Below are positions 2,477-64,000 of a DNA stretch of 64,000 nucleotides, in pieces (positions within the stretch are counted from its first letter, which is position 1; each line of letters opens with the position of its first letter). Origin of the DNA: a virus. Under the pieces are notes generated by a model, which saw nothing but the letters and a program-made list of their open reading frames with translations, did no database searches and was not told the origin of the DNA. Location: the IMG/VR virus record IMGVR_UViG_3300012815_000001; one strand, given 5' to 3'. The position numbers and the translations under genes are program-made.

Positions 2477-3828
2477 GGCCTGTACCCCCTTTTAACTGCA
2501 TCGCGCACTGTGTGGTCGTCTTGCTCATTCTTTTCAAGCTTATGCATTTCTGAAAGAATTTTACCTCCATTAATTCCATTTAGCTCTAATGATACTTTGT
2601 GTAGGTTTCCGTCTTTCGCTTTTTCACCAACAATATTTTTAGAATCTTGTGATATAGAAATATCAATACTCAAATCTTTTGAAGCCGCCCCTGTTAAATC
2701 TTCAAAAGTTGACAAATTCCCTTTGGAATTCGTAACAATTCTACGAATTGTATCGTCTACTTCTCTCATGCTTAATTCGTGAATATACCTTTCTCCTTTT
2801 TCGACAGTTTTTGTGAGAAAAGTTGCGGATAACTTTTTATCAACTGTTGAACCAGTAACATGATCGCCATCAGGACTAAAACTAATTTCCAAATTATGTT
2901 CACTGGCCAAGATTTTACTTTTACTTTCTAAATATTCTAAATCACCACCGCAATATCTTAATATTCTCAAGGTGCGTTGTTCCAAAGCCTCTTGTGCAGT
3001 AATTGTTCGAACCCCACCAGTTAACGGTGGAGCTTGTGAATTCAATGGTTTCGCGTTGTTGGTTGATTCCGCATCAACTTTGACAGGTTCGATTTTAGGC
3101 TTTAGCTCATCCATCAAGTACCTGAAATCTTTATCAAGAACGACAATTCTCTTATGATCGATACCTGCAGCATGAAGAGTTTTATAGCATGAAACGAAAT
3201 ATTTTTTACGTTCTTCATGGCTTACCAAATCTGGATCTGTTGAAAGCTCAATGCTTTTTCTGTTCCCCGAGTAATTATGCCTTGCTTCAAAATCAACTAT
3301 CTCTTGAACCCACGGCCCATTGATATTCACATAAAACCTAACCCCACCTGTTCTATTGAGGTCAAATTGAGTTCTATTTCTTTCATCCGCTATCTTAATT
3401 TTTGAATTAGAAAACTCCATTATAGACATATTGTACTTTTCTAGAATTACCTTCAACTCAGCTAGATAATCTTTTGCCTCAACCATTGAATTTTCAGGGC
3501 TTTTAGCCAGCTCAGACTCTGGTACGCGCTTCACATTTATACTAGCAATAATTTTGTCACGGAATGCCCCGTCAGTATCAGTCAGATAATCATATTTAGT
3601 TTGACTATTGCTTCCCATACCAAACGTCTTAGATTCTTCTGCGAAAGCCTTTAATATTTCATCGCTATATTGTTCTTGATTTTCAGGCAAATCATTAATG
3701 ACACTAGGGGTAGAATCTGCATCTTGAAAAGACTGAATTACACCTACTGTATTCTCTGAGAATCCCGTGTCTTTTTTTCCGCCAAAAACCTCTTTGAGGT
3801 TGTCTTTAATTTTGTCTATAAACTTCAT
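2473..3828 (-). CDS. Hypothetical protein, paralog of 3919..5376
   Basis: Shares a GG(V/D)(R/I)RF...G(I/V)...RIV block and internal (I/F)S.D repeats with the next gene. Confidence 0.8.
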   Translation of the reverse strand: MKFIDKIKDNLKEVFGGKKDTGFSENTVGVIQSFQDADSTPSVINDLPENQEQYSDEILKAFAEESKTFGMGSNSQTKYDYLTDTDGAFRDKIIASINVKRVPESELAKSPENSMVEAKDYLAELKVILEKYNMSIMEFSNSKIKIADERNRTQFDLNRTGGVRFYVNINGPWVQEIVDFEARHNYSGNRKSIELSTDPDLVSHEERKKYFVSCYKTLHAAGIDHKRIVVLDKDFRYLMDELKPKIEPVKVDAESTNNAKPLNSQAPPLTGGVRTITAQEALEQRTLRILRYCGGDLEYLESKSKILASEHNLEISFSPDGDHVTGSTVDKKLSATFLTKTVEKGERYIHELSMREVDDTIRRIVTNSKGNLSTFEDLTGAASKDLSIDISISQDSKNIVGEKAKDGNLHKVSLELNGINGGKILSEMHKLEKNEQDDHTVRDAVKRGYRP

Positions 3829-54524: not shown

Positions 54525-55013
54525 TCAGCAAGATCTGACGCGGGCCACGCTAGACGCACGTGTTAAATCGGTGACCGGGGATTTCACGCGCTTGTTCCGT
54601 GCACGACCTGGCGCACTGCGTACGGTCAAGATCAACTGCACCTGCTGATGCAACGCGTGGACCCAGTTCCTGTACGTCCGATCCGCGTCATCACCCAGGC
54701 CCAGCAGCGGCAATTGAGATCGAACCGACCATGCTGGTCGGGGCAGATAACGGTTACGCGCCAGCTTCGCGAGCAACGCACCTTTCTCGGATTGCCTCTC
54801 CAGTTGTGCAAGGGCCGCAGCGACCTCCATGGCGGCATGATCCATCCCTCCACCAGAAGCCATCATTAAGTCACGCGAGCCTGGGGTACCGCGGGGGGCA
54901 GAGCCTCCCCACTCTATGATCGTCGCCATTGGGCTACCCAACCCGCCACCGTCACCTACCTGGTTGAACTGGTTGCCCCAATGCTGCATGAGTTCTTCAA
55001 TTTCTTCGATCAT
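54525..55013 (-). CDS. Putative late-gene regulator (Q-like position)
   Basis: MIEEIEELMQHWG...RTYRNWVHALH; between replication and lysis modules. Confidence 0.6.
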   Translation of the reverse strand: MIEEIEELMQHWGNQFNQVGDGGGLGSPMATIIEWGGSAPRGTPGSRDLMMASGGGMDHAAMEVAAALAQLERQSEKGALLAKLARNRYLPRPAWSVRSQLPLLGLGDDADRTYRNWVHALHQQVQLILTVRSAPGRARNKRVKSPVTDLTRASSVARVRSC

Positions 55014-55040
55014 CGCCCCGCTCCCCCGCTCAAAATCAAA

Positions 55041-55336
55041 CCCAACACAAAAATCACCCAACCCAACACAAACCCAACACACCTAAAACCCTTTAAATTC
55101 AATAGCTTTAAAGAATGTGTGTTGAGTGTGTTGGGTGTGTTGGGTTTTACGGGCCTCGCATGAGAAAAAAAGATGAGCGCCATAAGTTCTCTGATTGAAA
55201 AAAATGACGCACATGCGCGTGCGCGACGCCAAACCCAACACACCCAACACAACAGGCGGAGAGCCGCGAAATAGAAGGCTAGAAATTGTGTGGGGTTGCG
55301 AAAACTAACCCAACACATACCCAACACACCCAACAC
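55041..55336. repeat. Iteron array CCCAACAC, probable replication origin
   Basis: Eight forward copies (55041, 55062, 55073, 55234, 55243, 55309, 55320, 55329) and two reverse (55128, 55137) around an AT-rich stretch, just after the primase-helicase. Confidence 0.85.
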
Positions 55337-55350
55337 ACTTTTGGTCGGAT

Positions 55351-58050
55351 TCATGCGGCAGCCGCCTTAATGTGGTCCCAATTGTCCACATTCCAACCCG
55401 CCAGCCGGGCTTGCGCTCGCCAGGCGAACACCGCCTTGCCTAGGTCGGCTGCCTTAAGTGATGGGGGCTGGGAAGCGTCATCACCACGAGGAAAAAAGAA
55501 CGCCCCGAACTTGCGGTTACTACCATCGGTCCAGGGTATGGCACGCGTCTTGTCCACCTCGGAGCTTATGAATAGCGAGAACTTCGTCTGGCTCATCACA
55601 TGCTCTTTGTTGCGGTGGCACCACTCCAGGAACATCGCGTACAAGTCCGTGGACAAACAGGCGCCCCACATCTCGCGCCCAAGGTCGCCACACTGCCAGA
55701 GTGACAGGAAAGTCTGCCAACTTGCTCGACTCAAGGCAACCAATCGTTCGCGGGCCTCGGTACTCGGCGGCCTGGTGCGCTGGTCGAAGTCTCCAAGATC
55801 AACGGACAACAACCACGCGTACAGCGCCGCAACACCACCATTCTCTAGCTCTCGGCCCACCGCCTTTTGACGCTCCACCGGAAGTGTCTCCATCGGCCAC
55901 AGCACTAACATCCGCCGATCACTGGGCGCGATAGGCCAGGGCATAATCTCGTTGCTTAGGAACGCTGCATTCATGTGGTTGGCTTCCTCCCAACCGTTGA
56001 TGAACTTCGACTCCATGCGCACGGTCTTGCCGGTGACCAGGTGCTTGATCTTGCCTACCTGGTTGTAGCGCTGGTCACGGCTGACCACTTCCTCAAACAC
56101 TGCCCACAGCTTGCGGCTTTGCCAGGCGTTGAAGTTGCTTTCCAACTGGGTCTGGCCGACCGTGGCGGCGTACTGCCCGTACAACAACCCAAAGGCATCA
56201 GCGAACAGCAAGCTTTTACCCGAGCCCTCCATAGTGGAGTGAGCCAGGACCGCTGTATCCATTTTCGCTCCGAGGTGCTGCAAGGGATACGCGAGCCACT
56301 TCACCAGCCAATCGTTCGACGACTTATCGTGGTTGCACAGGAAAGAGATCAACCACCGCAGGTTCTCGCACGCCGCGTCATCGCGGCTCGGTTCCATGGG
56401 CAGTCCGTCGAAGGTATTGATATAGACGTTCGGATCTTTGGTCATTGTCGGGTCGAACACAATGTTCTCCACGTCAACCACGCGGCGATCCGGGCTGTTC
56501 AACCACATGCCGTACATATCGCCGAGGGCCATCTTGACGGCGCCCTCTGGCACACGGCGTTTCTTCTCTCGGTCCCAAACATCCTTGGTACCGTCGATAT
56601 AGACATAGCGCTCAATCGGCTCAAGATTCAGCGCCCCACCCTTCTTACCCGCCATCTTGCGGGCCTGCTCGATCTCTTTGACCTTATCGTCCGAAATCAG
56701 CTTTTTCTGGGTGTCATCCATCCACTGTTTCGCCAGGGGCTTCCCGACACGGGCCTCAAACGCGGTTTTCTTCATCGTCCGTGCCTTGTCGAGATCCCAC
56801 ACTTGCGTGGTGCCCTCGACTAGCACGTACCTGCGCAGCACCTGCTCATAGGTCAACGCCTCCCCCGCCCCCCCGTCAGCAGCAGGAGCGGCTTCACTGA
56901 CTGGCGCGCTGGAGTCCTGCTCGCTGGCATCCGCCGATGGGGTCGGGGGAAGTTCCAGAGGGTTCGGGCGTGAGGAATGCTGCATGCCCAACATGCGGGC
57001 TGCATCCTTCACGGCTTTCGATTGGTCGCCATCGTGGTCCAGCAGGCAGAAGACCTCAAAAGCATCATTCTGGTGACCGTTGGCCAACGGATCCGCGCCG
57101 TGATGGGAATAGACCTTGCCTTCGGTGACCGTCACACCTGGTAGCCCGGTGCTGCTCTGGGGGTACAACCATTTGTTACCCCGCTTGATGTAACCGTGGG
57201 CGCGCAACAGTTCCTCAACATCGTGGCAACGATTGAACTCGTCGATCACCGACGGCTTGTCTCCTGCTGGCGCCGCACGCTTGACGGGCTTCGCGGCAGG
57301 CTTCCTGGGCTTTGGCGCCCATGGGCACGCGGCCTCGGCGTTGCGCTTGAAGACGTCCCAATTCTGCCAAATGTTCAGCAGCTCATTGGTGAGAACTGGC
57401 AGGCCTTCAGCTGCGTTCGGCGGCGTGCGCCAGGCGTAGGGCTTTCCAGTGCCTGGATGGATCGATGGCGGAAAAACGTCCTGCACCAGGCCTGCACGCA
57501 ATTCAAACACCGTGAAGCGCTTGTATTCCTCGGCCTCGGTTTGCGCTGCGGCCTCATCAACAGCATCACCCAGCTCTTTCGCCGCCTTGGCCCGAGCCAT
57601 CAACGCCTTGTGAATCGAGCCATCCGGGTCTTTTTCATTGGGCCACGAAAGCGAGTGGCGCGTCAGTTCAATGTCGTCGGGCATCTTGAACAGCACACGG
57701 AAACGCAGCGGGTTGCCAACGATGGTCGGATAGACCACTGCCATGGCATCCAGATCAAGGCCCATCTGATCAAACAATACAAACCGCGTCCACTGCACAT
57801 CGTCAACGTCCAACGAGCAAACACGGCTTGGTCCGAGCACTACGCCCAGGTTGTGATTGGGATTGCGTTGCCAGAATGCTTCGGCGGCGACCGGGTCGGT
57901 GATGTAGCCTCCCGGCTTGTTCCAACCCTTACCCTTCGGACCCTTTTCGCCCGGTTCAATCGGGACCAGAGCAAGATTGAAGGTTTCGATGTAACGGCGC
58001 GCCCATTCTGCTATTGGCACTCCGGAAGCTGCCGCGCTCATAGGAAGCAC
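55351..58050 (-). CDS. Bifunctional primase-polymerase / SF3-type helicase replication protein
   Basis: N-terminal Prim-Pol (KGPKGKGW...NLGVVLG...SLDVD); C-terminal EGSGKS Walker A, VFEEV, LSN. Confidence 0.92.
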   Translation of the reverse strand: MLPMSAAASGVPIAEWARRYIETFNLALVPIEPGEKGPKGKGWNKPGGYITDPVAAEAFWQRNPNHNLGVVLGPSRVCSLDVDDVQWTRFVLFDQMGLDLDAMAVVYPTIVGNPLRFRVLFKMPDDIELTRHSLSWPNEKDPDGSIHKALMARAKAAKELGDAVDEAAAQTEAEEYKRFTVFELRAGLVQDVFPPSIHPGTGKPYAWRTPPNAAEGLPVLTNELLNIWQNWDVFKRNAEAACPWAPKPRKPAAKPVKRAAPAGDKPSVIDEFNRCHDVEELLRAHGYIKRGNKWLYPQSSTGLPGVTVTEGKVYSHHGADPLANGHQNDAFEVFCLLDHDGDQSKAVKDAARMLGMQHSSRPNPLELPPTPSADASEQDSSAPVSEAAPAADGGAGEALTYEQVLRRYVLVEGTTQVWDLDKARTMKKTAFEARVGKPLAKQWMDDTQKKLISDDKVKEIEQARKMAGKKGGALNLEPIERYVYIDGTKDVWDREKKRRVPEGAVKMALGDMYGMWLNSPDRRVVDVENIVFDPTMTKDPNVYINTFDGLPMEPSRDDAACENLRWLISFLCNHDKSSNDWLVKWLAYPLQHLGAKMDTAVLAHSTMEGSGKSLLFADAFGLLYGQYAATVGQTQLESNFNAWQSRKLWAVFEEVVSRDQRYNQVGKIKHLVTGKTVRMESKFINGWEEANHMNAAFLSNEIMPWPIAPSDRRMLVLWPMETLPVERQKAVGRELENGGVAALYAWLLSVDLGDFDQRTRPPSTEARERLVALSRASWQTFLSLWQCGDLGREMWGACLSTDLYAMFLEWCHRNKEHVMSQTKFSLFISSEVDKTRAIPWTDGSNRKFGAFFFPRGDDASQPPSLKAADLGKAVFAWRAQARLAGWNVDNWDHIKAAAA

Positions 58051-58066
58051 TCCAACTGGTCATACC

Positions 58067-58297
58067 CTACTCCGCTGCGCGTAGCCGCTGTAGGGCTTCT
58101 GAAATTGAAATCACTTGATATCGAATCAGCAAAGAAGAGTTTTCGATATTGGTTAGCGCCAAGTCGCCATCCCTCAGCGGGGACTTCCCATCCCAATCGT
58201 CCACCACACGCTTGGCCCCGAACGCTCGCAGGAACGCCGTTGAATTTCTGGTCTTGCCGGAAGCCTGTGGTCCGACGATGATTAATGGCTTGCCCAT
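58067..58297 (-). CDS. Small P-loop-containing phage protein (76 aa)
   Basis: MGKPLIIVGPQASGKT; RBS GAGGT; start 58297. Confidence 0.7.
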   Translation of the reverse strand: MGKPLIIVGPQASGKTRNSTAFLRAFGAKRVVDDWDGKSPLRDGDLALTNIENSSLLIRYQVISISEALQRLRAAE

Positions 58298-58322
58298 AAC
58301 GCACCTCAATGGAGAAAAAAAC

Positions 58323-58646
58323 ATGCTGAAGGAAGAATTGCGCCACACCCATTTCCCATACTGTATTGCCAAGCAAGAAGACGGTACGTACGTCGTCACC
58401 AACCGCAACTACAAACCAATTGGCTTCTTGACTGGCGACTGGGTGGACTACAGCGATAGTCCAATCGGGATTAAAATCAAAGGCCTCACAGCGAAGGTCG
58501 CCGCGAAGCTCGATCACCAAGGGAGAGAGAACCTCGATAACATCTATCTGTACGGCGACGGATGCACTCCAACGTCGGATAAAAAATCCATGGATGCTTA
58601 TCTCTCCAGGCTCGCGATACTGATGAAATTGAAGATAGGAAGCTGA
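58323..58646 (+). CDS. Moron: hypothetical protein antisense within the early operon
   Basis: RBS GGAG, ATG 58323; FPYCI...NRNYKPIG...IYLYGDGCTP; lower GC than flanks. Confidence 0.75.
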   Translation: MLKEELRHTHFPYCIAKQEDGTYVVTNRNYKPIGFLTGDWVDYSDSPIGIKIKGLTAKVAAKLDHQGRENLDNIYLYGDGCTPTSDKKSMDAYLSRLAILMKLKIGS

Positions 58647-58665
58647 CGCGCGTAGGGAGGATGAA

Positions 58666-58872
58666 TCACGCACGCTTCACCTCCCTTATCTGCTGGCAAC
58701 TGACGCAAGTGGCACAACCTTGGATCGTCTGTTGACGCAGTAACGGGATAGGTTCGTCGCAATCCTCGCAGAATTGCGCGCTGACGGAGCATGTCGGGCG
58801 TGGGCGATTTGCTAGTGCACGCAGGCGGAACTGTTCGGCGGCCTCGTTGGCGATATCGACATCATCAGACAT
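58666..58872 (-). CDS. TraR/DksA C4-type zinc finger protein
   Basis: MSDDVDIA...CEDCDEPIP..R...GCATCVSCQ. Confidence 0.9.
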   Translation of the reverse strand: MSDDVDIANEAAEQFRLRALANRPRPTCSVSAQFCEDCDEPIPLLRQQTIQGCATCVSCQQIREVKRA

Positions 58873-59353
58873 TGTCAGCTCCCTCCATCGCCTTGCGGGC
58901 ACCCGCCATGATGCCAAGCACCTCACGAATAACATCCATGCCGCGCTGCTCCAGCAGGAGTACTTCGTGGGGCTCCCAGATATTGTCGGCAGCGCCGTCG
59001 TGCATGCAGGCCACGAACTGGCCCGACTCCTCGAGCATCTTGCCGACGGCCTTCAAGGCATCTGCAGTTGCCGGTACCGGAATTGGCTTGTACCAAACGG
59101 CACCCGCTGGCCTGACCATGGCATCCAGCAGGCAAGGATCGCCGGTCAACCTGATCACCTCTTCCAGCTCATCAGGGTCCAGCCAGCGCCGCTCTTCGTC
59201 GTGCTTGACCTTCTTCTGCAGGCTGTCGTAATCGAGCACCATGTCGAGTGCCAAGGCGGTCACGCCGCCCCGGTAATCATGTGCCGCGCGATAGATCGCT
59301 TTGCGGAGAGAAAGAACCGGCCCAGCGGCCGGCGATTTATCTGTTCGACTCAT
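58865..59353 (-). CDS. CII-family phage regulatory protein
   Basis: YRAAHDYRGGVTALA..M...SLQKK...L...ELEEVIRLTGDP.LLDAM; follows cro. Confidence 0.8.
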   Translation of the reverse strand: MSRTDKSPAAGPVLSLRKAIYRAAHDYRGGVTALALDMVLDYDSLQKKVKHDEERRWLDPDELEEVIRLTGDPCLLDAMVRPAGAVWYKPIPVPATADALKAVGKMLEESGQFVACMHDGAADNIWEPHEVLLLEQRGMDVIREVLGIMAGARKAMEGADNV

Positions 59354-59405
59354 AACCGTAAATACCCCTTTTACGGTCTAGCCATAGAAAGGGGCACGCC
59401 CTATC

Positions 59406-59496
59406 CTACGACCACGACCGATGTGCATGTGCTGTGTGTCGTCGTAGCCGGGCTGGGGGATCTTTGGTGAGAGGCCCCAGTCCGGCACCCTTTTTT
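59406..59496 (+). ncRNA. Candidate two-hairpin regulatory RNA element between cII and cro
   Basis: CTACGAC/GTCGTAG stem enclosing CATGTGCTGTG; GCCGGGCTGGGG/CCCCAGTCCGGC stem enclosing TTTGGTGAGAG; T6 tail; strand is inferred. Confidence 0.55.
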
Positions 59497-59704
59497 ATGC
59501 AGCTCTGGGCTTGCGGCGCGATCCGATTGGTCGAATCTCCACCGCAAAACACGCCCCTTTCTCATCAACTCGCACTCGGATATCCCGTGCCGAGTTCAGC
59601 ATTTGAGACACCGCGCTTTGCGAAACCCCGATGAGTAAAGCCAGCTCTGGTTGAGTCTTCCCCTCAGCGAAATCTTCCAAGGGGATACCTATTTCATTAG
59701 CCAT
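59495..59704 (-). CDS. cro: Cro-like repressor
   Basis: KTQPELALLIGVSQSAVSQML...AVEIRP; divergent from cI; RBS GAGG before ATG 59704. Confidence 0.9.
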   Translation of the reverse strand: MANEIGIPLEDFAEGKTQPELALLIGVSQSAVSQMLNSARDIRVRVDEKGACFAVEIRPIGSRRKPRAA

Positions 59705-59741
59705 CCACGTTTCCTCGAATGGGCGTTTCGGCATGGATATT

Positions 59742-59750
59742 AGTGTTACT
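59742..59750. promoter_or_regulatory. Putative repressor operator core AGT-N3-ACT
   Basis: AGTGTTACT here and at 60693-60701; AGTAATACT at 60718-60726. Confidence 0.55.
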
Positions 59751-59822
59751 TCTTTTAAACAGCAAGAGAAAAAGTCGCAATGCTGTTTTGATAATATAAG
59801 TCTTCCTTATAAATTGGATGGC

Positions 59823-60620
59823 ATGACTATCTCAATACCTTTAGCCGCCGATGACGAGACCCGAAAAGCCGAGGCTATGCGCCTTAAAGCTATTTTTCAG
59901 GATCGCAAGCGGAACGACCCGACCCTCACCCAAGACAAAATCGCCGATCTCTGCGAATGGTCTGGACAAAGTGTCGTCAGCCAGTACTTGAATGGGCGCA
60001 TCCCCCTCAACATCAGCGCCCTCATAAAATTCGCGAACGTTTTGGGCTTTTCACTCGACGAAGTAAGCCCGCGATTGGCTGCTATAGCGGAGATGCCCCG
60101 CCTGCGGAATTCGCAAGAACACAAAAAAACATCAGCAAGCACTGACTGGGAAATGCACCCGATTGAAGTATGGGATGACGACACGCCCCTCGGCCCAGAC
60201 GAGGTCGAGCTGCCATTTTTTAAAGAAGTGGAATTGTCTGCCGGCAAGGGATCTGAGGTGATGCTTGAAACAAACGGGCGCAAGCTGCGATTCGGCAAAC
60301 GAACCTTGAAACGAAAGAGTATTGATCCGGCCGCTGCTGGCTGCGTGCCTGTAACCGGGAACAGCATGGAGCCCGTGCTACCGGATGGCAGTACAGTCGG
60401 GGTCGATACCGCGAATACGACCATCCAGGACGGCAAGATGTATGCAATCGACCATGACGGCCAACTCCGCGTGAAGCTGCTCTACCGCCTGCCAGGCTCC
60501 GGCCTACGCCTTCGCAGCTATAACACTGATGAGCATCCTGACGAGCGTTACGATGGCGGCTACGTGGAGCAGCATATTCGCGTGATTGGCAAAGTGTTCT
60601 GGTACTCCGTAATGCTCTGA
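59823..60620 (+). CDS. cI: CI repressor (HTH plus S24 autopeptidase)
   Basis: LTQDKIADLCEWSGQSVVSQYLNG HTH; LSAGKG cleavage site; VTGNSMEP catalytic Ser; LRVKLL catalytic Lys; start ATG 59823. Confidence 0.95.
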   Translation: MTISIPLAADDETRKAEAMRLKAIFQDRKRNDPTLTQDKIADLCEWSGQSVVSQYLNGRIPLNISALIKFANVLGFSLDEVSPRLAAIAEMPRLRNSQEHKKTSASTDWEMHPIEVWDDDTPLGPDEVELPFFKEVELSAGKGSEVMLETNGRKLRFGKRTLKRKSIDPAAAGCVPVTGNSMEPVLPDGSTVGVDTANTTIQDGKMYAIDHDGQLRVKLLYRLPGSGLRLRSYNTDEHPDERYDGGYVEQHIRVIGKVFWYSVML

Positions 60621-60636
60621 CGCTCCCGCAAATCGA

Positions 60637-60660
60637 AAAGGCCCTTAGGGGTCTTTTTTT
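60637..60660 (+). terminator. Terminator after cI
   Basis: AAGGCCC-tta-GGGGTCTT followed by a T run. Confidence 0.7.
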
Positions 60661-60692
60661 TCGCCTACTAATTTTATTTGCGCTATTTTATA

Positions 60693-60731
60693 AGTGTTAC
60701 TGTTGACTTATGAAATCAGTAATACTAATTT
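60693..60731 (+). promoter_or_regulatory. Leftward early promoter (PL-like) with two operator cores
   Basis: TTGACT at 60703-60708, TAATTT 17 nt later, flanked by AGT-N3-ACT sites. Confidence 0.55.
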
Positions 60732-60768
60732 TGCACTCGTATCAACCTCTCACCAAAGAGTACGAGCC

Positions 60769-60969
60769 ATGCAAACAACACAGCACAGCACCACCCGCTG
60801 CCCTGTCTACCTCCACCCGGCTGCGGCGACCAGCCCGGGCGCGGTAGAGCGTATTCAGCGCAGCACCGGCCTATTGGTCATCGTCAATCTCGGACGCGCC
60901 ACCATGGCGCCCGCCCCGGTAGCAATCGCTACCGATGACCGGGGTCCATGGGGAGGTGACGCAGCATGA
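60769..60969 (+). CDS. Small early protein (66 aa)
   Basis: MQTTQH...CPVYLHPAAA; coupled to the next gene. Confidence 0.65.
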   Translation: MQTTQHSTTRCPVYLHPAAATSPGAVERIQRSTGLLVIVNLGRATMAPAPVAIATDDRGPWGGDAA

Positions 60970-61547
60970 GACCGATCCTGATTGGTCTCACCGGCCGCGC
61001 TCGCTCTGGCAAGACCACTGCCGCCGAACACTTGGCGCGAACTTACCTGCTGGAGCAATACGCCTTCGCCGACCCGCTCCGTGATGGCCTGATGGCGATC
61101 TTCAACCTCGATCCGACCGACTTTGAAGGCGACCGCAAAGAGCTGCCGCTCGGCTGGCTGGACCGCTCGCCACGCCAACTTATGCAGTCGATGGGCACCG
61201 AGTGGGCGCGCAAGACTGTGCACCCTGATGTGTGGGTGAAGCTCGCGGAGCAGAACCTCGACTACATGACTAATGCGTTGGGTGCCGTTATCGGATTCGT
61301 TGTCAGCGACGTGCGGTTTGAGAACGAAGCCGACCTTATTCGCCGCCGCGGTGGCACGGTCATTCACGTCTGCCGCGCCGACGCGCAGGCCGTGAATCCG
61401 CACGTTAGTGAAGCGGGCATCGCCGGCAACAAAGATGACCTGCTGGTTTTTAACAACGGCACGGTCGAGGAGTTTCTGGATGCGCTGAATTGGGTATTCC
61501 TCATGGTCCGCGCACGGCAGCAAGACCCCGAACAGCTCCCTGCCTGA
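60966..61547 (+). CDS. Deoxynucleoside monophosphate kinase
   Basis: IGLTGRARSGKTT, FADPLR, RQLMQSMGTEWAR, SDVRFENEA. Confidence 0.9.
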   Translation: MRPILIGLTGRARSGKTTAAEHLARTYLLEQYAFADPLRDGLMAIFNLDPTDFEGDRKELPLGWLDRSPRQLMQSMGTEWARKTVHPDVWVKLAEQNLDYMTNALGAVIGFVVSDVRFENEADLIRRRGGTVIHVCRADAQAVNPHVSEAGIAGNKDDLLVFNNGTVEEFLDALNWVFLMVRARQQDPEQLPA

Positions 61548-61558
61548 GGCCCGCAGCC

Positions 61559-61834
61559 ATGAACCGCACCCTGGATCAAACAGCAGCATTGCTCGGACTC
61601 AAGCCCCGCGCCTTCCGCACCAGGTTGCGGGAACTCGGCGTACTCAACTCATCCGGCGACTTGGCCAGCGCGCATCGCGACCGTGGCCACCTCTTTTCAG
61701 ACCCACGCAGCCGCTGGAATCCAACGCTTGGCAACTACACCCACTACGCAGTGGTGATGGTGAAAGAGTCGGGCGTTGAGTGGATCGCAAAAAAGCTAGA
61801 CATCGTCATCACCAAAAAGGACGCCGCAGCATGA
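61559..61834 (+). CDS. Antirepressor KilAC-like domain protein
   Basis: TAALLGLKPRAF...LRE...VMVKESGVEWIA; start ATG 61559. Confidence 0.65.
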   Translation: MNRTLDQTAALLGLKPRAFRTRLRELGVLNSSGDLASAHRDRGHLFSDPRSRWNPTLGNYTHYAVVMVKESGVEWIAKKLDIVITKKDAAA

Positions 61835-62205
61835 AGCCGAACGCCATCAACTCCGCTGTAGGCGCCCTAAAGCTGGTGCCTATGTTCCTTAATCACCCAA
61901 CAGTGATCAGCCGCGCCACTCTGATTGGCGCTTCATCGGAAGCCGTCGAGCTGCTGGAAGCGCTGCCTTGCGTGTCGGTCGAGCTGGCCGAAGTGTTCCG
62001 CTGCGTTGACGCCGTGATCGCTGACGGCCAGGTCGCCTACGTGACACCGGTCAAGTGTCCCGAATATCCATACGGTGCCGTCGTCGCGGACGCCCAGGGC
62101 AACGTCCTGGCAGCGGCCAAGGGAAAGAGCAAAGAAGGTCTCGCCGAACTCATCCGGCTCAAGCTGGTGCCCCGAAAGGAGGGGCATGGGGAGGAATTCG
62201 CGTGA
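61831..62205 (+). CDS. Hypothetical phage protein
   Basis: ATGA overlap with the upstream gene; start 61831. Confidence 0.65.
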   Translation: MKPNAINSAVGALKLVPMFLNHPTVISRATLIGASSEAVELLEALPCVSVELAEVFRCVDAVIADGQVAYVTPVKCPEYPYGAVVADAQGNVLAAAKGKSKEGLAELIRLKLVPRKEGHGEEFA

Positions 62206-62444
62206 CCACCACCCTGGAACAACTCCGCCGCCAGTTCGCCACACCGTGCCCGACCTTGACCGCCGTGCGTGAGCAGTACTTCACGCACATCCGCACCGAC
62301 CGCTACCTGCTGAGCGAAATCAAGGCAGGGAAGATCCAGCTGGTGGTCAAGCGCCTGCACTGCTCGGCCCGCGCCAAGCCAGTCGTTTACCTGCATGACC
62401 TGGCCGACTACCTCGACGCCCAGGCGACGAAGCAAGCGGCCTGA
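62202..62444 (+). CDS. PrtN-family (pyocin activator-like) DNA-binding protein
   Basis: TLEQLRRQF...VREQYFTH...IKAGKI.L...VYLHDLADYLD; GTG start with RBS GAGGA. Confidence 0.8.
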   Translation: MTTTLEQLRRQFATPCPTLTAVREQYFTHIRTDRYLLSEIKAGKIQLVVKRLHCSARAKPVVYLHDLADYLDAQATKQAA

Positions 62445-62507
62445 TTCAAACGGTAGCCCCTGCCGACCAGGGGCAGCGACAGCAACTCAACCAGTGAGAC
62501 ACAGCAC

Positions 62508-62858
62508 ATGAAAGCGACCAACACCGCCGAATTTATTGGCGAACTCAACGCCGGCGTTTTCGCCAACCAAATCGGGCACGCCCTCTCGGAAGTCGCGGCC
62601 GGTGTCGTCGACAACAAGAAGGTTGGCACCGTCACGCTCACCTTCACCCTGAAGCAAATCGCCGACAGCCACCAGGTCACCGTCAACCACAAGCTCGCCT
62701 ACAAGGTGCCGACCAAGCGCGGCAGCCGCAGCGAAGACACCACCCTCGACACGCCGATGCATGTCGGTTCGGGTGGCCGCCTCACGCTGTTCCCGGAGAC
62801 GCCTCACGCGGACCAGATGTTTAGCCGAGACGAGGCCCCGATTCACGCCAAGTCGTAA
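62508..62858 (+). CDS. Conserved phage protein (usual partner of DUF2303)
   Basis: FIGELNAGVF...GTVTLTFTLK...TPMHVGSGGRLT. Confidence 0.8.
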   Translation: MKATNTAEFIGELNAGVFANQIGHALSEVAAGVVDNKKVGTVTLTFTLKQIADSHQVTVNHKLAYKVPTKRGSRSEDTTLDTPMHVGSGGRLTLFPETPHADQMFSRDEAPIHAKS

Positions 62859-62902
62859 CGCTTCACCACTCCATACCTCTCACCAAAACAGGAATAGATC
62901 CA

Positions 62903-63712
62903 ATGGAAGCTCGTGCAATTCAACTGATTCAAGACACCGCCCTGCTCGCCCATGCCAAACCGCTGGGCACCTTCACGCCAGTTCTGGCGCTGCCAGACGA
63001 CGTCACGCTACACAGCATCGAGAAGTTCCAGGAACAACGCAGCCGCTTCCGTGGCGCACTGGCAACCCACTCATTGAAGGACTTTGCCGACTACGTAGTA
63101 GCCGCAAAGGGCCCAGCCGCCGTTGGTTTCGTGAACGGCGATGCAATGGCCTGCACCGTCTACTTCAACCTCGGTGACATCGAAAATCCAGGGCACGGCG
63201 ACTACAGCGCGACGCTCACCCTCAAGAAAACCGCCGCGTTTCTGGCGCTTGAGCACGCCGCACAACGGCAGCACGCTCAGAAGGATCTCAGCGACTGGAT
63301 CGAAGACTGGGCACCGAATCTGAAAGCCTTGGACGCTGACGATAAAGAGATTGACCTGCGCAAGGCTGCCGGGGCGATTCGCTCCATCAGCATCGAGCAA
63401 GCACGCAAGAGCGAACACATAGTTGGCGACATGAGCGCCTCCCGTTCGGCGATGGACCAGATCGAGGCCAAGTCATCGGAAGGCCTGCCGGCTGAATTCC
63501 TGTTCACCGTAGCCCCTTACGAAGGGCTGACCGCACGCACCATCCGCTTGCGGGTAGCAGTACTGACTGGCGGCGATAAGCCCGCACTGCGCCTGCGTTG
63601 GATTGGCGAAGCACAACTGCGCGAAGACCTGGCGCAAGAGTTCAAACAAGTCGTTCAAAAAGAGGTCGGCGGTTCCGCGACCTTGACGATCGGCACATTC
63701 GACCTGGGTTAA
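62903..63712 (+). CDS. DUF2303/YfdQ-family protein
   Basis: RFRG...SLKDFADYV...HGDYSATLTLKKT...QKDLSDWIEDW...LPAEFLF...PYEG. Confidence 0.85.
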   Translation: MEARAIQLIQDTALLAHAKPLGTFTPVLALPDDVTLHSIEKFQEQRSRFRGALATHSLKDFADYVVAAKGPAAVGFVNGDAMACTVYFNLGDIENPGHGDYSATLTLKKTAAFLALEHAAQRQHAQKDLSDWIEDWAPNLKALDADDKEIDLRKAAGAIRSISIEQARKSEHIVGDMSASRSAMDQIEAKSSEGLPAEFLFTVAPYEGLTARTIRLRVAVLTGGDKPALRLRWIGEAQLREDLAQEFKQVVQKEVGGSATLTIGTFDLG

Positions 63713-63786
63713 CCACCTGCAACACCCCGTCGCCGTCCTCTCACCAAAACTGTCCGGCGGCGGGCTCTAATTTGAGGTCACAGCAC

Positions 63787-64000
63787 ATGCACTCAACACA
63801 ACTTATCGTCATTGCAGTCGGAACGCTGCTCGGTTTTGCTGCCCTATTTTTTTATATCCGAAAAGCGTTGAAACGCGCATTGAAACGCAGCTATCAGCGG
63901 GGCGTGGATAACGGAAGGACGTTCCAGCTCTGGAGAGTGGAGACATTGAACCTTGACCTTCATCAAGCGGAAATCACCCACCAGACCGAAATAGCGAAAC
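63787..64000 (+). CDS. Membrane-anchored phage protein (truncated by window edge)
   Basis: RBS GAGGT, MHSTQLIVIAVGTLLGFAALFFYIRK. Confidence 0.6.
   Translation, partial: MHSTQLIVIAVGTLLGFAALFFYIRKALKRALKRSYQRGVDNGRTFQLWRVETLNLDLHQAEITHQTEIAK

Follow-up and report, generated by a model that had tools for sequence, protein, structure and literature searches.

A conserved two-hairpin element between cro and cII of a Pseudomonas prophage, most likely encoding a c4-like antisense RNA

The interval between cro and cII of this Pseudomonas prophage carries a two-hairpin element on the strand opposite both genes (Table 1). The cI repressor gene and the candidate target operon are on the + strand, and cro and cII are on the - strand. 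The putative early-left promoter, which we read from the sequence, is flanked by the repeats AGTGTTACT and AGTAATACT, both of which are also present at the cro/cI divergent region. It has similar contexts in relatives and is not among the sites listed by a promoter consensus scan, which did list a PRM-like site at 59788-59815.

Table 1. The element, its neighbours and its candidate targets in the window (the whole 64-kb stretch of DNA analysed); the promoters and the RNA are predictions
Feature	Position	Strand	Details
cII, CP76-type CII activator	58865..59353	-	Pfam PF06892, E = 1.5e-15; PHROG 101, CII-like activator
Hairpin H0, cII leader	59355..59378	-	ACCGTAAA, 7 nt, TTTACGGT
Predicted promoter P_as	59379..59407	+	-35 TAGCCA (59379-84), 17-nt spacer, -10 TATCCT (59402-07)
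Predicted antisense RNA, ~83 nt	59414..59496	+	Covariance model R1, 111.9 bits
Hairpin H1	59414-59445	+	59414-17 : 59442-45 and 59419-22 : 59438-41 paired; C59418 bulged
H1 loop (B'), 15 nt	59423-59437	+	GTGCATGTGCTGTGT
Hairpin H2	59447-59486	+	12-bp stem 59447-58 : 59475-86; loop 59459-59474
A' in H2 loop	59461-59474	+	TCTTTGGTGAGAGG
T6 run 3' of H2	59491-59496	+	Overlaps the cro stop codon of the other strand
cro	59495..59734	-	Pfam PF09048, 38.7 bits
cI repressor, HTH + S24 peptidase	59823..60620	+	Pfam PF00717, PF01381; same strand as P_as and downstream of it
Putative early-left promoter	60703..60731	+	TTGACT, 17 nt, TAATTT
Target module 1	60736-60791	+	5' end of early-left transcript; hairpin 60736-60766 (stem CTCGTA/TACGAG), A (60746-60759, 14 nt) in loop; B-like site 60778-60787 (10 nt)
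B site	62499-62510	+	12 nt, over spacer and ATG of 116-aa gene (62508-62858); GAGA before gene
A site	62876-62887	+	12 nt, immediately 5' of Shine-Dalgarno of DUF2303 gene (62903-63712)
Target module 3	63726-63792	+	Hairpin 63726-63764 (stem CCCGTCGCCG/CGGCGGCGGG), A (63737-63748, 12 nt) in loop; GAGG, then B (63779-63792, 14 nt) over ATG 63787

Every feature that an earlier note had described from this DNA is present in the sequence where that note placed it, and one boundary had to be redrawn. The note had begun its first hairpin at 59406; the inner part is retained here as H1, and the outer part (59406-59413), which runs into the predicted -10 hexamer and its discriminator and lacks support from covariation, is dropped. 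H1 has a weak, G.U-rich extension into its loop that leaves UGUGC at the apex, and the H2 stem contains one wobble on the + strand (G59452.T59481). The single-sequence fold of the element was not exceptional (z = -1.55), and its significance rests on comparison across relatives rather than on folding energy.

The element recurred at 90 or more related Pseudomonas prophage or phage loci, and 12 of the 151 genomes sampled from the genus carried it. Its nucleotide identity was 91%, against 74.5% for the adjacent cII, and it sits upstream of cII regardless of the preceding cro allele. The covariation across relatives that had been suggested as a check was found: on the + strand 98.7% of cells were paired and seven pairs changed on both sides, a count reached in 0 of 500 shuffles, with slid controls at most 58% paired. 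Six of the 12 pairs of H2 changed on both sides (31 G.U versus 6 A.C cells on the + strand). For H1, pair 62/93 of alignment A2 covaried (AU, GC, GU), pair 70/86 was UA in 26 rows and UG in 17, and the extended helix was 99.5% paired on the + strand. Non-standard pairs were mainly of the kind expected if the + strand is the RNA, with 49 G.U versus 9 A.C cells, a bias that is clear in cells and modest in independent positions (12 versus 6 pair positions), the rows being related. The same helices read on the - strand were about 94% paired, and a stem finder treating both strands equally gave 38 versus 15.

The predicted promoter P_as is kept in all 43 aligned relatives, and in more distant relatives its -10 hexamer reads TATTCT, TATATT, TATCAT or TACTCT, with T1, A2 and T6 invariant. 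It matches only 8 of 12 consensus positions, which explains why the consensus scan did not list it. From this promoter we infer a start at A59414, so that transcription would begin at the base of H1; pairing in that hairpin would start with the predicted +1 itself, whose pair covaries (AU, GC, GU). The 3' end is uncertain because the T-run is not conserved: termination at the T6 run would hold in this window only, since 25 of the 43 relatives have just T2 or T3 after H2 and phage SC_9_H1H8_2017 has no run at all. Where the run is weak, transcription could continue into cI, and the predicted RNA might then form the 5' part of a P_RE-like transcript of that gene.

The loops of the element are matched by a set of short motifs in the early-left operon. 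Across the 64 kb the motif A 12-mer CCTCTCACCAAA occurs exactly at four places, each of them within 59463-63748, and the next-best matches carry two mismatches. The six target sites proposed in the earlier note, three for each motif, were recovered as exact complements. At two of the B sites the motif lies between the Shine-Dalgarno sequence and the ATG, covering the start codons at 62508 and 63787, and two of the A sites lie in hairpin loops. In module 1, where the first ORF starts at 60769, the B-like site gains four pairs, for 14 bp in all, if one base is bulged, and the A variant found in relatives tracks the loop variant of the element. The B site over ATG 62508 is conserved in relatives, in the arrangement GAGG, C, ACAGCAC, ATG. 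The gene starting at 63787 is small with a predicted membrane helix, and the module 3 stem before it showed two compensatory changes and about 16 G.U versus 4 A.C cells on the mRNA-sense strand among 42 distinct relatives; covariance model R1 matched the reverse complement of this module at 16.6 bits. The targets occupy all four sizeable intergenic gaps of the early-left operon in the window, and thus each start in the operon that lacks translational coupling to a preceding gene has a target. Loop-target duplex energies were not outliers when compared with the whole window.

Across 85 related loci, matches of at least 10 nt between the element and the early-left operon numbered 528 in the pairing orientation and 100 in the control orientation. 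Of 225 distinct contexts, 100 had ACAGCAC directly before an ATG, in most cases with GAGG ahead of it. In distant phages the A sequences differ and each has matching targets of its own, as seen for LPPA56 (GGCCTCTACACC), Lodos (GACTCTCAC) and vB_PstS-pAN (GCCTCACCAGC and CCCACTCACCA), and the CACCAAA and CACCAC loop classes follow the class of the target. Phylogenetically independent co-variation of loop and target amounted to four pairs only, about three in the same direction and none opposite (p about 0.25). The core of B was nearly invariant across distant phages, which would also fit binding by a conserved host factor.

Based on these data, we consider it most likely, with a probability of about 0.6, that a small antisense RNA is transcribed from the + strand of the cro-cII interval and blocks translation of the early-left operon. 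A sigma-70-type promoter would start the RNA at about 59414, and the transcript would form the two hairpins and end, in this phage, at the T6 run after about 83 nt. In trans, its loops B' (59423-59437) and A' (59459-59474) would pair with the B and A sites of the PL-type operon, which is on the same strand, reaching the leader with the first start codon (60746-60791), the ribosome-binding regions of the 62508 gene and, together with its hairpin, of the 63787 gene, and the stretch immediately 5' of the Shine-Dalgarno of the 62903 gene. Pairing would nucleate loop to loop at A and then proceed at B over the spacer and AUG; ribosome binding would be blocked and expression of the operon lowered by polarity, as for P1 c4 RNA at icd-ant. 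We infer transcription itself, the two ends of the RNA, repression rather than activation, and the timing of this control. In cis, the RNA would be fully complementary to the cro-cII intergenic mRNA and should therefore promote cleavage of the PR transcript or be titrated by it. The earlier note had preferred such an antisense model, with two recognition loops acting in trans and cis-antisense to the cro-cII leader, and the comparative evidence favours it: the G.U pairs fall mainly on the + strand, the stems change in a compensatory manner, the promoter is conserved, B lies between the Shine-Dalgarno and the ATG of several genes in many relatives, and the phage-specific A loops match their targets.

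All copies of A and B are in the sense orientation within their own transcripts, and identity among sense copies is indistinguishable by sequence alone from complementarity to an antisense RNA. The motifs might thus act as signals in the early transcripts themselves, each a hairpin with a phage-specific loop (A) and a conserved linear B to which a phage protein and a host factor would bind, and the + strand of this spacer would play no part; they could be nut- or put-like antitermination sites after PL and after cro, as the earlier note had offered as an alternative, or a RegA-like translational operator. One module does open the PL transcript and another directly follows cro, an arrangement like that of nutL and nutR, a phage-specific loop with a conserved linear motif resembles boxB and boxA, the + strand T-run is not conserved, and one B copy of vB_PstS-pAN occupies a sense-strand hairpin loop, with T5 after the hairpin. 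We nevertheless regard this as unlikely, since the G.U bias of the cro-cII element, like the G.U-rich extension of H1, points to the opposite strand, which also has the conserved -10 hexamer at 17-nt spacing, and since ribosomes would compete with an antitermination complex at the additional sites over start codons; the nut- or put-like proposal is weakened and keeps a small share of the probability. Moreover, the first PL ORF has neither an arginine-rich N-like motif nor a Pfam match, this window has no convincing intrinsic terminator further along in the sense direction, and some of the Cro alleles that precede the same element have a basic tail and others lack it.

Somewhat more doubtful still is that the hairpins are only the 5' leader of a long transcript from a CII-dependent equivalent of P_RE, running antisense through cro into cI, with the loop matches doing little or nothing in trans. 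Like lambda P_RE, the promoter is placed between cro and the start of cII and directed at cI, an inverted repeat is found at about -60 to -38, most relatives have a weak terminator or none, and a GGATGG before the cI ATG could be used by a read-through transcript; the PRM-like site would yield a nearly leaderless cI message. This would leave unexplained both the recurrence of the loops at three to six sites in another operon, within hairpin loops and between Shine-Dalgarno and ATG, and the matching of phage-specific A alleles to their own targets, and it is compatible with the antisense explanation rather than exclusive of it. Very improbable is that the motifs are DNA-level or historical repeats with no RNA role, whether protein-binding sites or conserved junctions that recombination of mosaic modules has spread. 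The motifs do occur at gene boundaries of a mosaic region in which the cro stop codon is a breakpoint, and some target modules score with R1 as the element in inverted form, suggesting duplication; against this, the flanking stems diverge in sequence yet pair through compensatory and G.U changes, the motifs are in loops, the register of B is fixed relative to the Shine-Dalgarno and ATG, and conservation of the element far exceeds that of the adjacent coding DNA.

Among known systems, the element most likely represents an undescribed antisense RNA of the P1 c4 kind. As the accounts in PMC2864571 and PMC12197685 present it, the c4 RNA of P1 and P7 (RF01695) is 77 nt (Citron & Schuster 1990, cited in both), pairs through two loop-exposed recognition sequences with two separate sites on the target mRNA, one of them ribosome-binding, and is encoded upstream of icd-ant in the same operon, from whose transcript it is cut out. 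The predicted RNA is of similar size, likewise has two loops for two sites, one at a ribosome-binding site, and, as in c4, a small number of loop bases, different from one related phage to the next, would determine its specificity. It differs in having its own predicted promoter, in its position antisense between a lambdoid cro and cII with an additional cis-antisense relation, in having several target modules across an operon instead of one a2/b2 pair, and in its Pseudomonas host. The Rfam search with the C4 and c4-a1b1 models proposed in the earlier note was negative even at E <= 10; the element would work like c4, yet it is not a member of the c4 family.

In lambda, P_RE lies between cro and the cII start, points toward cI and gives a long, CII-dependent transcript, and OOP RNA, for which no trans targets are known, overlaps the 3' end of cII. 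Our candidate resembles OOP and P_RE/PaQ as a short antisense transcript of the lambdoid cro-cII-O region that would affect cII expression, and its promoter position equals that of P_RE, so that activation by CII may be possible; unlike them, it would overlap the cro-cII spacer and has loops matched to another early operon. With nutL/nutR (boxA-boxB) and HK022 putL/putR it has in common that modules directly follow the early-left promoter and cro and that a phage-specific hairpin loop is combined with a conserved linear motif, but here the order is reversed, with the hairpin first, the loops span 12 to 16 nt, start codons carry extra copies, the cro-cII strand bias favours the opposite strand and an N-like protein is not evident. 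P4 CI RNA and N15 CA RNA are RNA immunity factors that mature from the leader of the very transcript under their control and terminate it prematurely. They too are small phage RNAs that pair with repeated short sites in early transcripts and keep lytic or antirepressor functions off, whereas the RNA proposed here would come from a separate gene and its sites are at ribosome-binding regions.

Hairpin H0 precedes the predicted start, occupying about -60 to -38 relative to P_as, and holds the cII Shine-Dalgarno in its loop, with the ATG immediately after the stem. It was invariant in 43 rows, and its only non-standard cells on the + strand were A.C (G.U on the - strand), a bias opposite to that of H1 and H2. 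Compensatory variants of its stem were ACCGAAAA/TTTTCGGT in L079 and L082 and ACCGTTAA/TTAACGGT in L013.

At its 3' end the window consists of the immunity region of a lambdoid prophage of Pseudomonas, and the closest phage records were those of the Pseudomonas phages SC_9_H1H8_2017 (85%), Lodos, LPPA56, vB_PstS-pAN and others. On the + strand of the spacer between cro and cII lies an element of two hairpins, H1 with loop B' and H2 with loop A', which also overlaps the cro stop codon. The two loops are exactly complementary, over 10-14 nt, to sites A and B in the early-left (PL-type) operon, with B sites lying over the ATGs at 62508 and 63787. When the sequence was re-inspected, every coordinate that the earlier note had given for these motifs proved correct. 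The A motif CCTCTCACCAAA has exactly four copies in 64 kb, of which the cro-cII spacer has one (- strand) and the operon three (+ strand), and all near-matches elsewhere carry two mismatches. The B motif CACAGCACATGC is exact at 59425-36 (-) and 63779 (+), has one mismatch at 62500 and occurs as a 10-mer at 60778. Every motif copy reads in the sense direction of the transcript that carries it, so in the cro-cII spacer it is the + strand that is complementary to the sites of the operon. Each of the four sizeable intergenic gaps of the operon in the window (60620-60769, 62444-62508, 62858-62903 and 63712-63787) holds a site, and the remaining gene junctions overlap or almost abut.

Features of the immunity region, the predicted RNA and its candidate target modules (window coordinates)
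Feature	Position	Strand	Remarks
primase	55351-58050	-	
cII	58865-59353	-	ATG at 59353; CP76-type CII
hairpin H0	59355-59378	-	8-bp stem, cII Shine-Dalgarno in 7-nt loop, ATG directly past stem
promoter-like site P_as	59379-59407	+	TAGCCA, 17 nt, TATCCT; directly upstream of H1
predicted RNA (H1, H2)	59414-59496	+	
cro	59495-59734	-	Pfam Cro
PRM-like site	59788-59815		promoter scan
cI	59823-60620	+	HTH plus S24 peptidase
terminator-like hairpin	near 60640-60660		with T-run; between cI and early-left operon
module 1	60736-60791	+	operon 5' end (PL leader); A-loop hairpin, first ATG, then ACACAGCACAGC
66-aa ORF	from 60769	+	first PL ORF
dNMP kinase		+	early-left operon, after 66-aa ORF
small ORF		+	early-left operon; weak similarity to KilAC domain of phage antirepressors (Ant)
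124-aa ORF		+	early-left operon
PrtN-like protein		+	early-left operon
second module	after PrtN-like gene		stem-loop, then GAGG, C, ACAGCAC, ATG
116-aa ORF	62508	+	early-left operon
DUF2303 protein	62903	+	early-left operon
module 3	after DUF2303 gene		GC-rich hairpin with A in loop, then GAGG, 3 nt, ACAGCAC, ATG
small ORF	from 63787	+	early-left operon

Relatives were collected by a CII search (9 genome loci and 80 viral contigs), and the element was found upstream of cII in all of them except one (L018). It is kept behind any of at least six unrelated cro alleles, with the mosaic breakpoint at the cro stop codon, and the 141-nt spacer was 91% identical to that of the window as compared with a mean of 74.5% for the cII DNA (39 loci). 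No other stretch of the immunity region is as well conserved as the "empty" spacer between cro and cII, a point of relevance to prophage annotation. A covariance model (R1) built from 38 distinct copies of the element matched 12 of the 151 genomes sampled from the genus Pseudomonas (about 8%; one genome per species); the element is present in at least 80 viral contigs, and isolated carriers include phages Lodos, LPPA56 and vB_PstS-pAN. Conservation and covariation in related prophages, which the earlier note had named as checks, both bore it out, with the element conserved and its stems changing compensatorily. We concluded that the element is real, strongly conserved and non-coding. On the + strand, ORFs at 59434-59634 and 58847-59470 were discarded as antisense artefacts of GC-rich DNA. 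A 17-codon - strand ORF from the B-motif ATG was also rejected, as it is without a Shine-Dalgarno sequence and its ATG is gone in LPPA56.

In one subgroup of the relatives R1 found two tandem two-hairpin units upstream of cII (L012, L026, L042, L050, L054, L063, L070, L088 and L089). This subgroup also carries a third hairpin type with the loop TTACACGGGTACATGTAA or a variant of it, and a search for a target matching that loop found none.

The structure was assessed in an alignment (A2) of 43 distinct copies, all placed in the + orientation of the window, with base pairs counted row by row on a fixed structure of H1 (8 pairs) and H2 (12 pairs). Standard pairs were present in 98.7% of the 860 cells on the + strand, both-sided changes occurred at 7 pairs, none of 500 shuffles reached any of five measures, and slid controls were at most 58% paired. 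Read on the - strand, the same helices were about 94% paired. Among the non-Watson-Crick cells, 49 were G.U on the + strand vs 9 A.C, the latter reading as G.U on the - strand (12 vs 6 pair positions). Five further pairs can be added to H1, and three of them are G.U in almost every row, on the + strand only; all nine variant cells in this extension turn G.U into A-U. The extended stem leaves UGUGC as an apical loop in the middle of B'. With G.U and A.C given equal scores, a stem finder gave 38 vs 15 for 73 distinct A-type hairpins, tandem units included; run over all operon sites, this finder was confounded by composition and spurious motif matches. Transcription-coupled deamination of the non-template strand would drive a bias opposite to that seen. 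The strand call is supported rather than proven because the rows of A2 are related, and these counts suggest that structure has been selected on the + strand of the window in the cro-cII element. Single-sequence folding energies were unexceptional (z = -1.55 for the + strand and -1.10 for the - strand). We dropped a comparison of minimum free energies between strands in favour of counts on the fixed structure, since the antisense of C/A-rich motifs is G/U-rich and the comparison is therefore biased. Hairpin H0, upstream of the predicted RNA start, shows a strand pattern opposite to that of H1 and H2 and has compensatory variants in L079, L082 and L013; it is part of the cII message.

Directly upstream of H1 is the promoter-like site P_as. 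Its -10 hexamer was TATCCT in 42 of the 43 aligned rows and, among remoter relatives and phages, TATTCT, TATATT, TATCAT or TACTCT; the invariance of T1, A2 and T6 is the pattern that would be expected of a working sigma-70 -10 hexamer. The site was absent from the list of a generic promoter scan because only 8 of 12 consensus positions match. The predicted start, A59414, is 7 nt past the -10 hexamer and is the first paired base of H1, and this pair covaries (AU 39, GC 2, GU 1). The outer stem that had been proposed for H1 (59406-59413) could not be upheld, as it overlaps the -10 hexamer, would fall upstream of the predicted start and is broken without compensation in L011, L077 and L078. For a hairpin in the promoter spacer the counts were ambiguous. 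After H2 the window has ACCC and then T6, but this T-run is only T2 or T3 in 25 of 43 relatives and is missing in SC_9_H1H8_2017; the 3' end of the predicted RNA is uncertain. Like lambda P_RE, which lies between cro and the cII start and points through cro toward cI, P_as lies between these two genes and is directed through cro toward cI, so that transcripts from it may run on into cI. The cI gene has a GGATGG sequence ahead of its ATG, and the PRM-like site would give a nearly leaderless cI message, as in lambda. In our view, a discrete small RNA and an RNA domain at the 5' end of an establishment transcript are two versions of a single model. The inverted repeat of H0 abuts the -35 hexamer and so could double as an activator site, perhaps for CII; it could be a lead for CII action at the predicted promoter and could equally be a cII leader hairpin.

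On the target side, matches of at least 10 nt between element and early-left operon numbered 528 in the pairing orientation vs 100 in the control across the relatives. Three modules recur, and of 225 distinct contexts of ACAGCAC, 100 had an ATG immediately after it. Two compensatory changes were seen in the stem of module 3, where G.U cells on the mRNA-sense strand numbered about 16 vs 4 for A.C; one polymorphism accounts for most of the G.U cells. Applied to the reverse complement of modules having both A and B, R1 scored 16.6 bits in the window (63711-63805, - strand) and up to 40 bits in L041, and the target modules are thus mirror images of the element from which they may have been derived by inverted duplication. 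Within this range of 16 to 40 bits, matches to inverted modules were also seen at L041:531-621 and L042:5508-5602. Loop-target duplex energies in a scan of the whole window did not single out the targets. In L077, L011 and L078 the early-left operon is replaced by different genes and only the leader A hairpin of module 1 is left; these three loci have a 1-nt deletion in the B' loop, and in L080 the lone B target is altered at the position of that deletion.

Loops and targets tend to vary together. Within the group, elements with loop CACCAAAGA had targets with CACCAAA about 100 times vs CACCAC once, and those with loop CACCACAAG had mostly CACCAC (28 vs 11). At module 1 the distinct loop/target combinations were AA/AA 15, AA/AC 2, AC/AC 7 and AC/AA 1, the two AA/AC combinations being spurious regular-expression matches. 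Each class changes five times on the cII tree, and in four independent pairs the target followed the loop about three times and never opposed it, a result that is not significant (p about 0.25) because the pairs are too few. We regard the distant phages, each with its own A allele, as the stronger evidence of co-variation. In LPPA56, GGCCTCTACACC lies in the loops of two spacer hairpins and recurs once in a hairpin loop about 20 nt ahead of a B-type ribosome-binding site; vB_PstS-pAN has GCCTCACCAGC in one loop and two targets and CCCACTCACCA in one spacer copy and two targets; and the A allele of Lodos is GACTCTCAC. The LPPA56 word and the 13-nt vB_PstS-pAN word CCCACTCACCAAA were absent from all other four records, and GCCTCACCAGC recurs alone twice in the window and once in SC_9_H1H8_2017.

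Based on these data, we give a probability of roughly 0.6 to the reading that the element is an undescribed c4-like antisense RNA, or an RNA domain of a longer transcript, linking the two early operons. Mechanistically the closest known system is the c4 RNA of P1 and P7, which shares with the element two loop sequences, two target sites, one of them covering a ribosome-binding site, and allele-specific loops. In contrast to c4, which precedes its target within one operon (c4-icd-ant) and is released by processing, the element is outside the target operon, is on the strand opposite to cro and cII and has its own promoter-like site, with cI and the terminator-like hairpin separating it from its targets. 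The Rfam search proposed in the earlier note returned no match to C4 (RF01695) or c4-a1b1 at E <= 1 in 55000-64000 or even at E <= 10 in 59300-60900, and all other Rfam families gave nothing relevant, only chance matches. Because it has no covariance match and its gene is not in the target operon, we do not regard the element as a member of the C4 family. Lambda OOP and P_RE are likewise antisense in the cro-cII region, but the position and trans targets of the element differ from theirs: OOP, a short RNA with its own promoter, overlaps the 3' end of cII and ends at an intrinsic terminator, whereas the element overlaps the cro-cII spacer and its T-run is not conserved. Nothing like the element was found for Pseudomonas temperate phages by full-text literature searches or in a 2025 review of phage small RNAs (PMC12197685).

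The motifs could instead be nut-like antitermination signals, with the phage-specific hairpin loop in the role of boxB and the conserved linear motif in that of boxA. Sense-strand copies are placed as in nut and put systems, at the PL leader (60736-60791) and directly after cro (59423-59474, -), and at the sequence level identity of sense copies is the same thing as complementarity to an antisense RNA, so sequence cannot separate the two. Such signals would have sense-strand structure in both copies, yet the cro-cII copy had 49 G.U cells antisense vs 9 sense, a count less than decisive as the rows are related. The promoter on the + strand and the motif copies over start codons also speak against this explanation, and neither an N-like protein nor downstream terminators were evident: the 66-aa first PL ORF had no Pfam match and no arginine-rich motif, and a terminator scan of the window gave no excess over shuffles. 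We consider it improbable. An establishment transcript whose loops have no trans function is a further alternative; it would share the position and direction of P_as, but it would not account for the loop-target complementarity and co-variation, and we consider it improbable.

If transcribed, the c4-like RNA would represent a new family of regulatory RNAs in phages, present neither in Rfam nor in the 2025 review (PMC12197685), would carry the two-loop mechanism of c4 beyond P1-type plasmid prophages into lambdoid phages and would link two early operons through RNA. The model makes precise predictions (start site, seed sequences and four target sites), and the natural allelic variants are ready-made compensatory mutants. 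A bolder and doubtful proposal is that a single CII-switched promoter between cro and cII makes an RNA hub for the lysis-lysogeny decision throughout a large group of temperate Pseudomonas phages. In trans, the two hairpins at the 5' end of this RNA would shut down translation across the early-left operon as a whole; in cis, the RNA would cleave or titrate the message of cro and cII; and by reading through, transcription would supply cI. Heteroimmunity between prophages residing in one cell would be coded at the RNA level by the phage-specific A loop, and the tandem units of some relatives would be versions with several specificities.

Some further observations concern the rest of the region. 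Repeats of AGTGTTACT or AGTAATACT at 59741-59749, 60691-60699 and 60716-60725, in the cro/cI divergent region and at the inferred early-left promoter, are probably CI operator half-sites. The Cro C-terminus (59495-59540) has a basic tail, IRPIGSRRK..., also present in several other cro alleles; it does not track the element, since some alleles that precede the same element are without it. In the P. stutzeri phage vB_PstS-pAN (L004, about 2960-3010, - strand), a copy of B occupies the loop of a hairpin on the sense strand (CCCCGGT...ACCGGGG) with T5 behind it, a tR1-like terminator between cro and cII for which the window has no counterpart. Rfam matches to miRNAs, among them MIR5649, were dismissed as spurious chance matches; they fell on a near-perfect 87-nt palindrome of AACCCAACAC-type repeats directly downstream of the primase gene (55060-55146), which may be a replication origin or iteron region.
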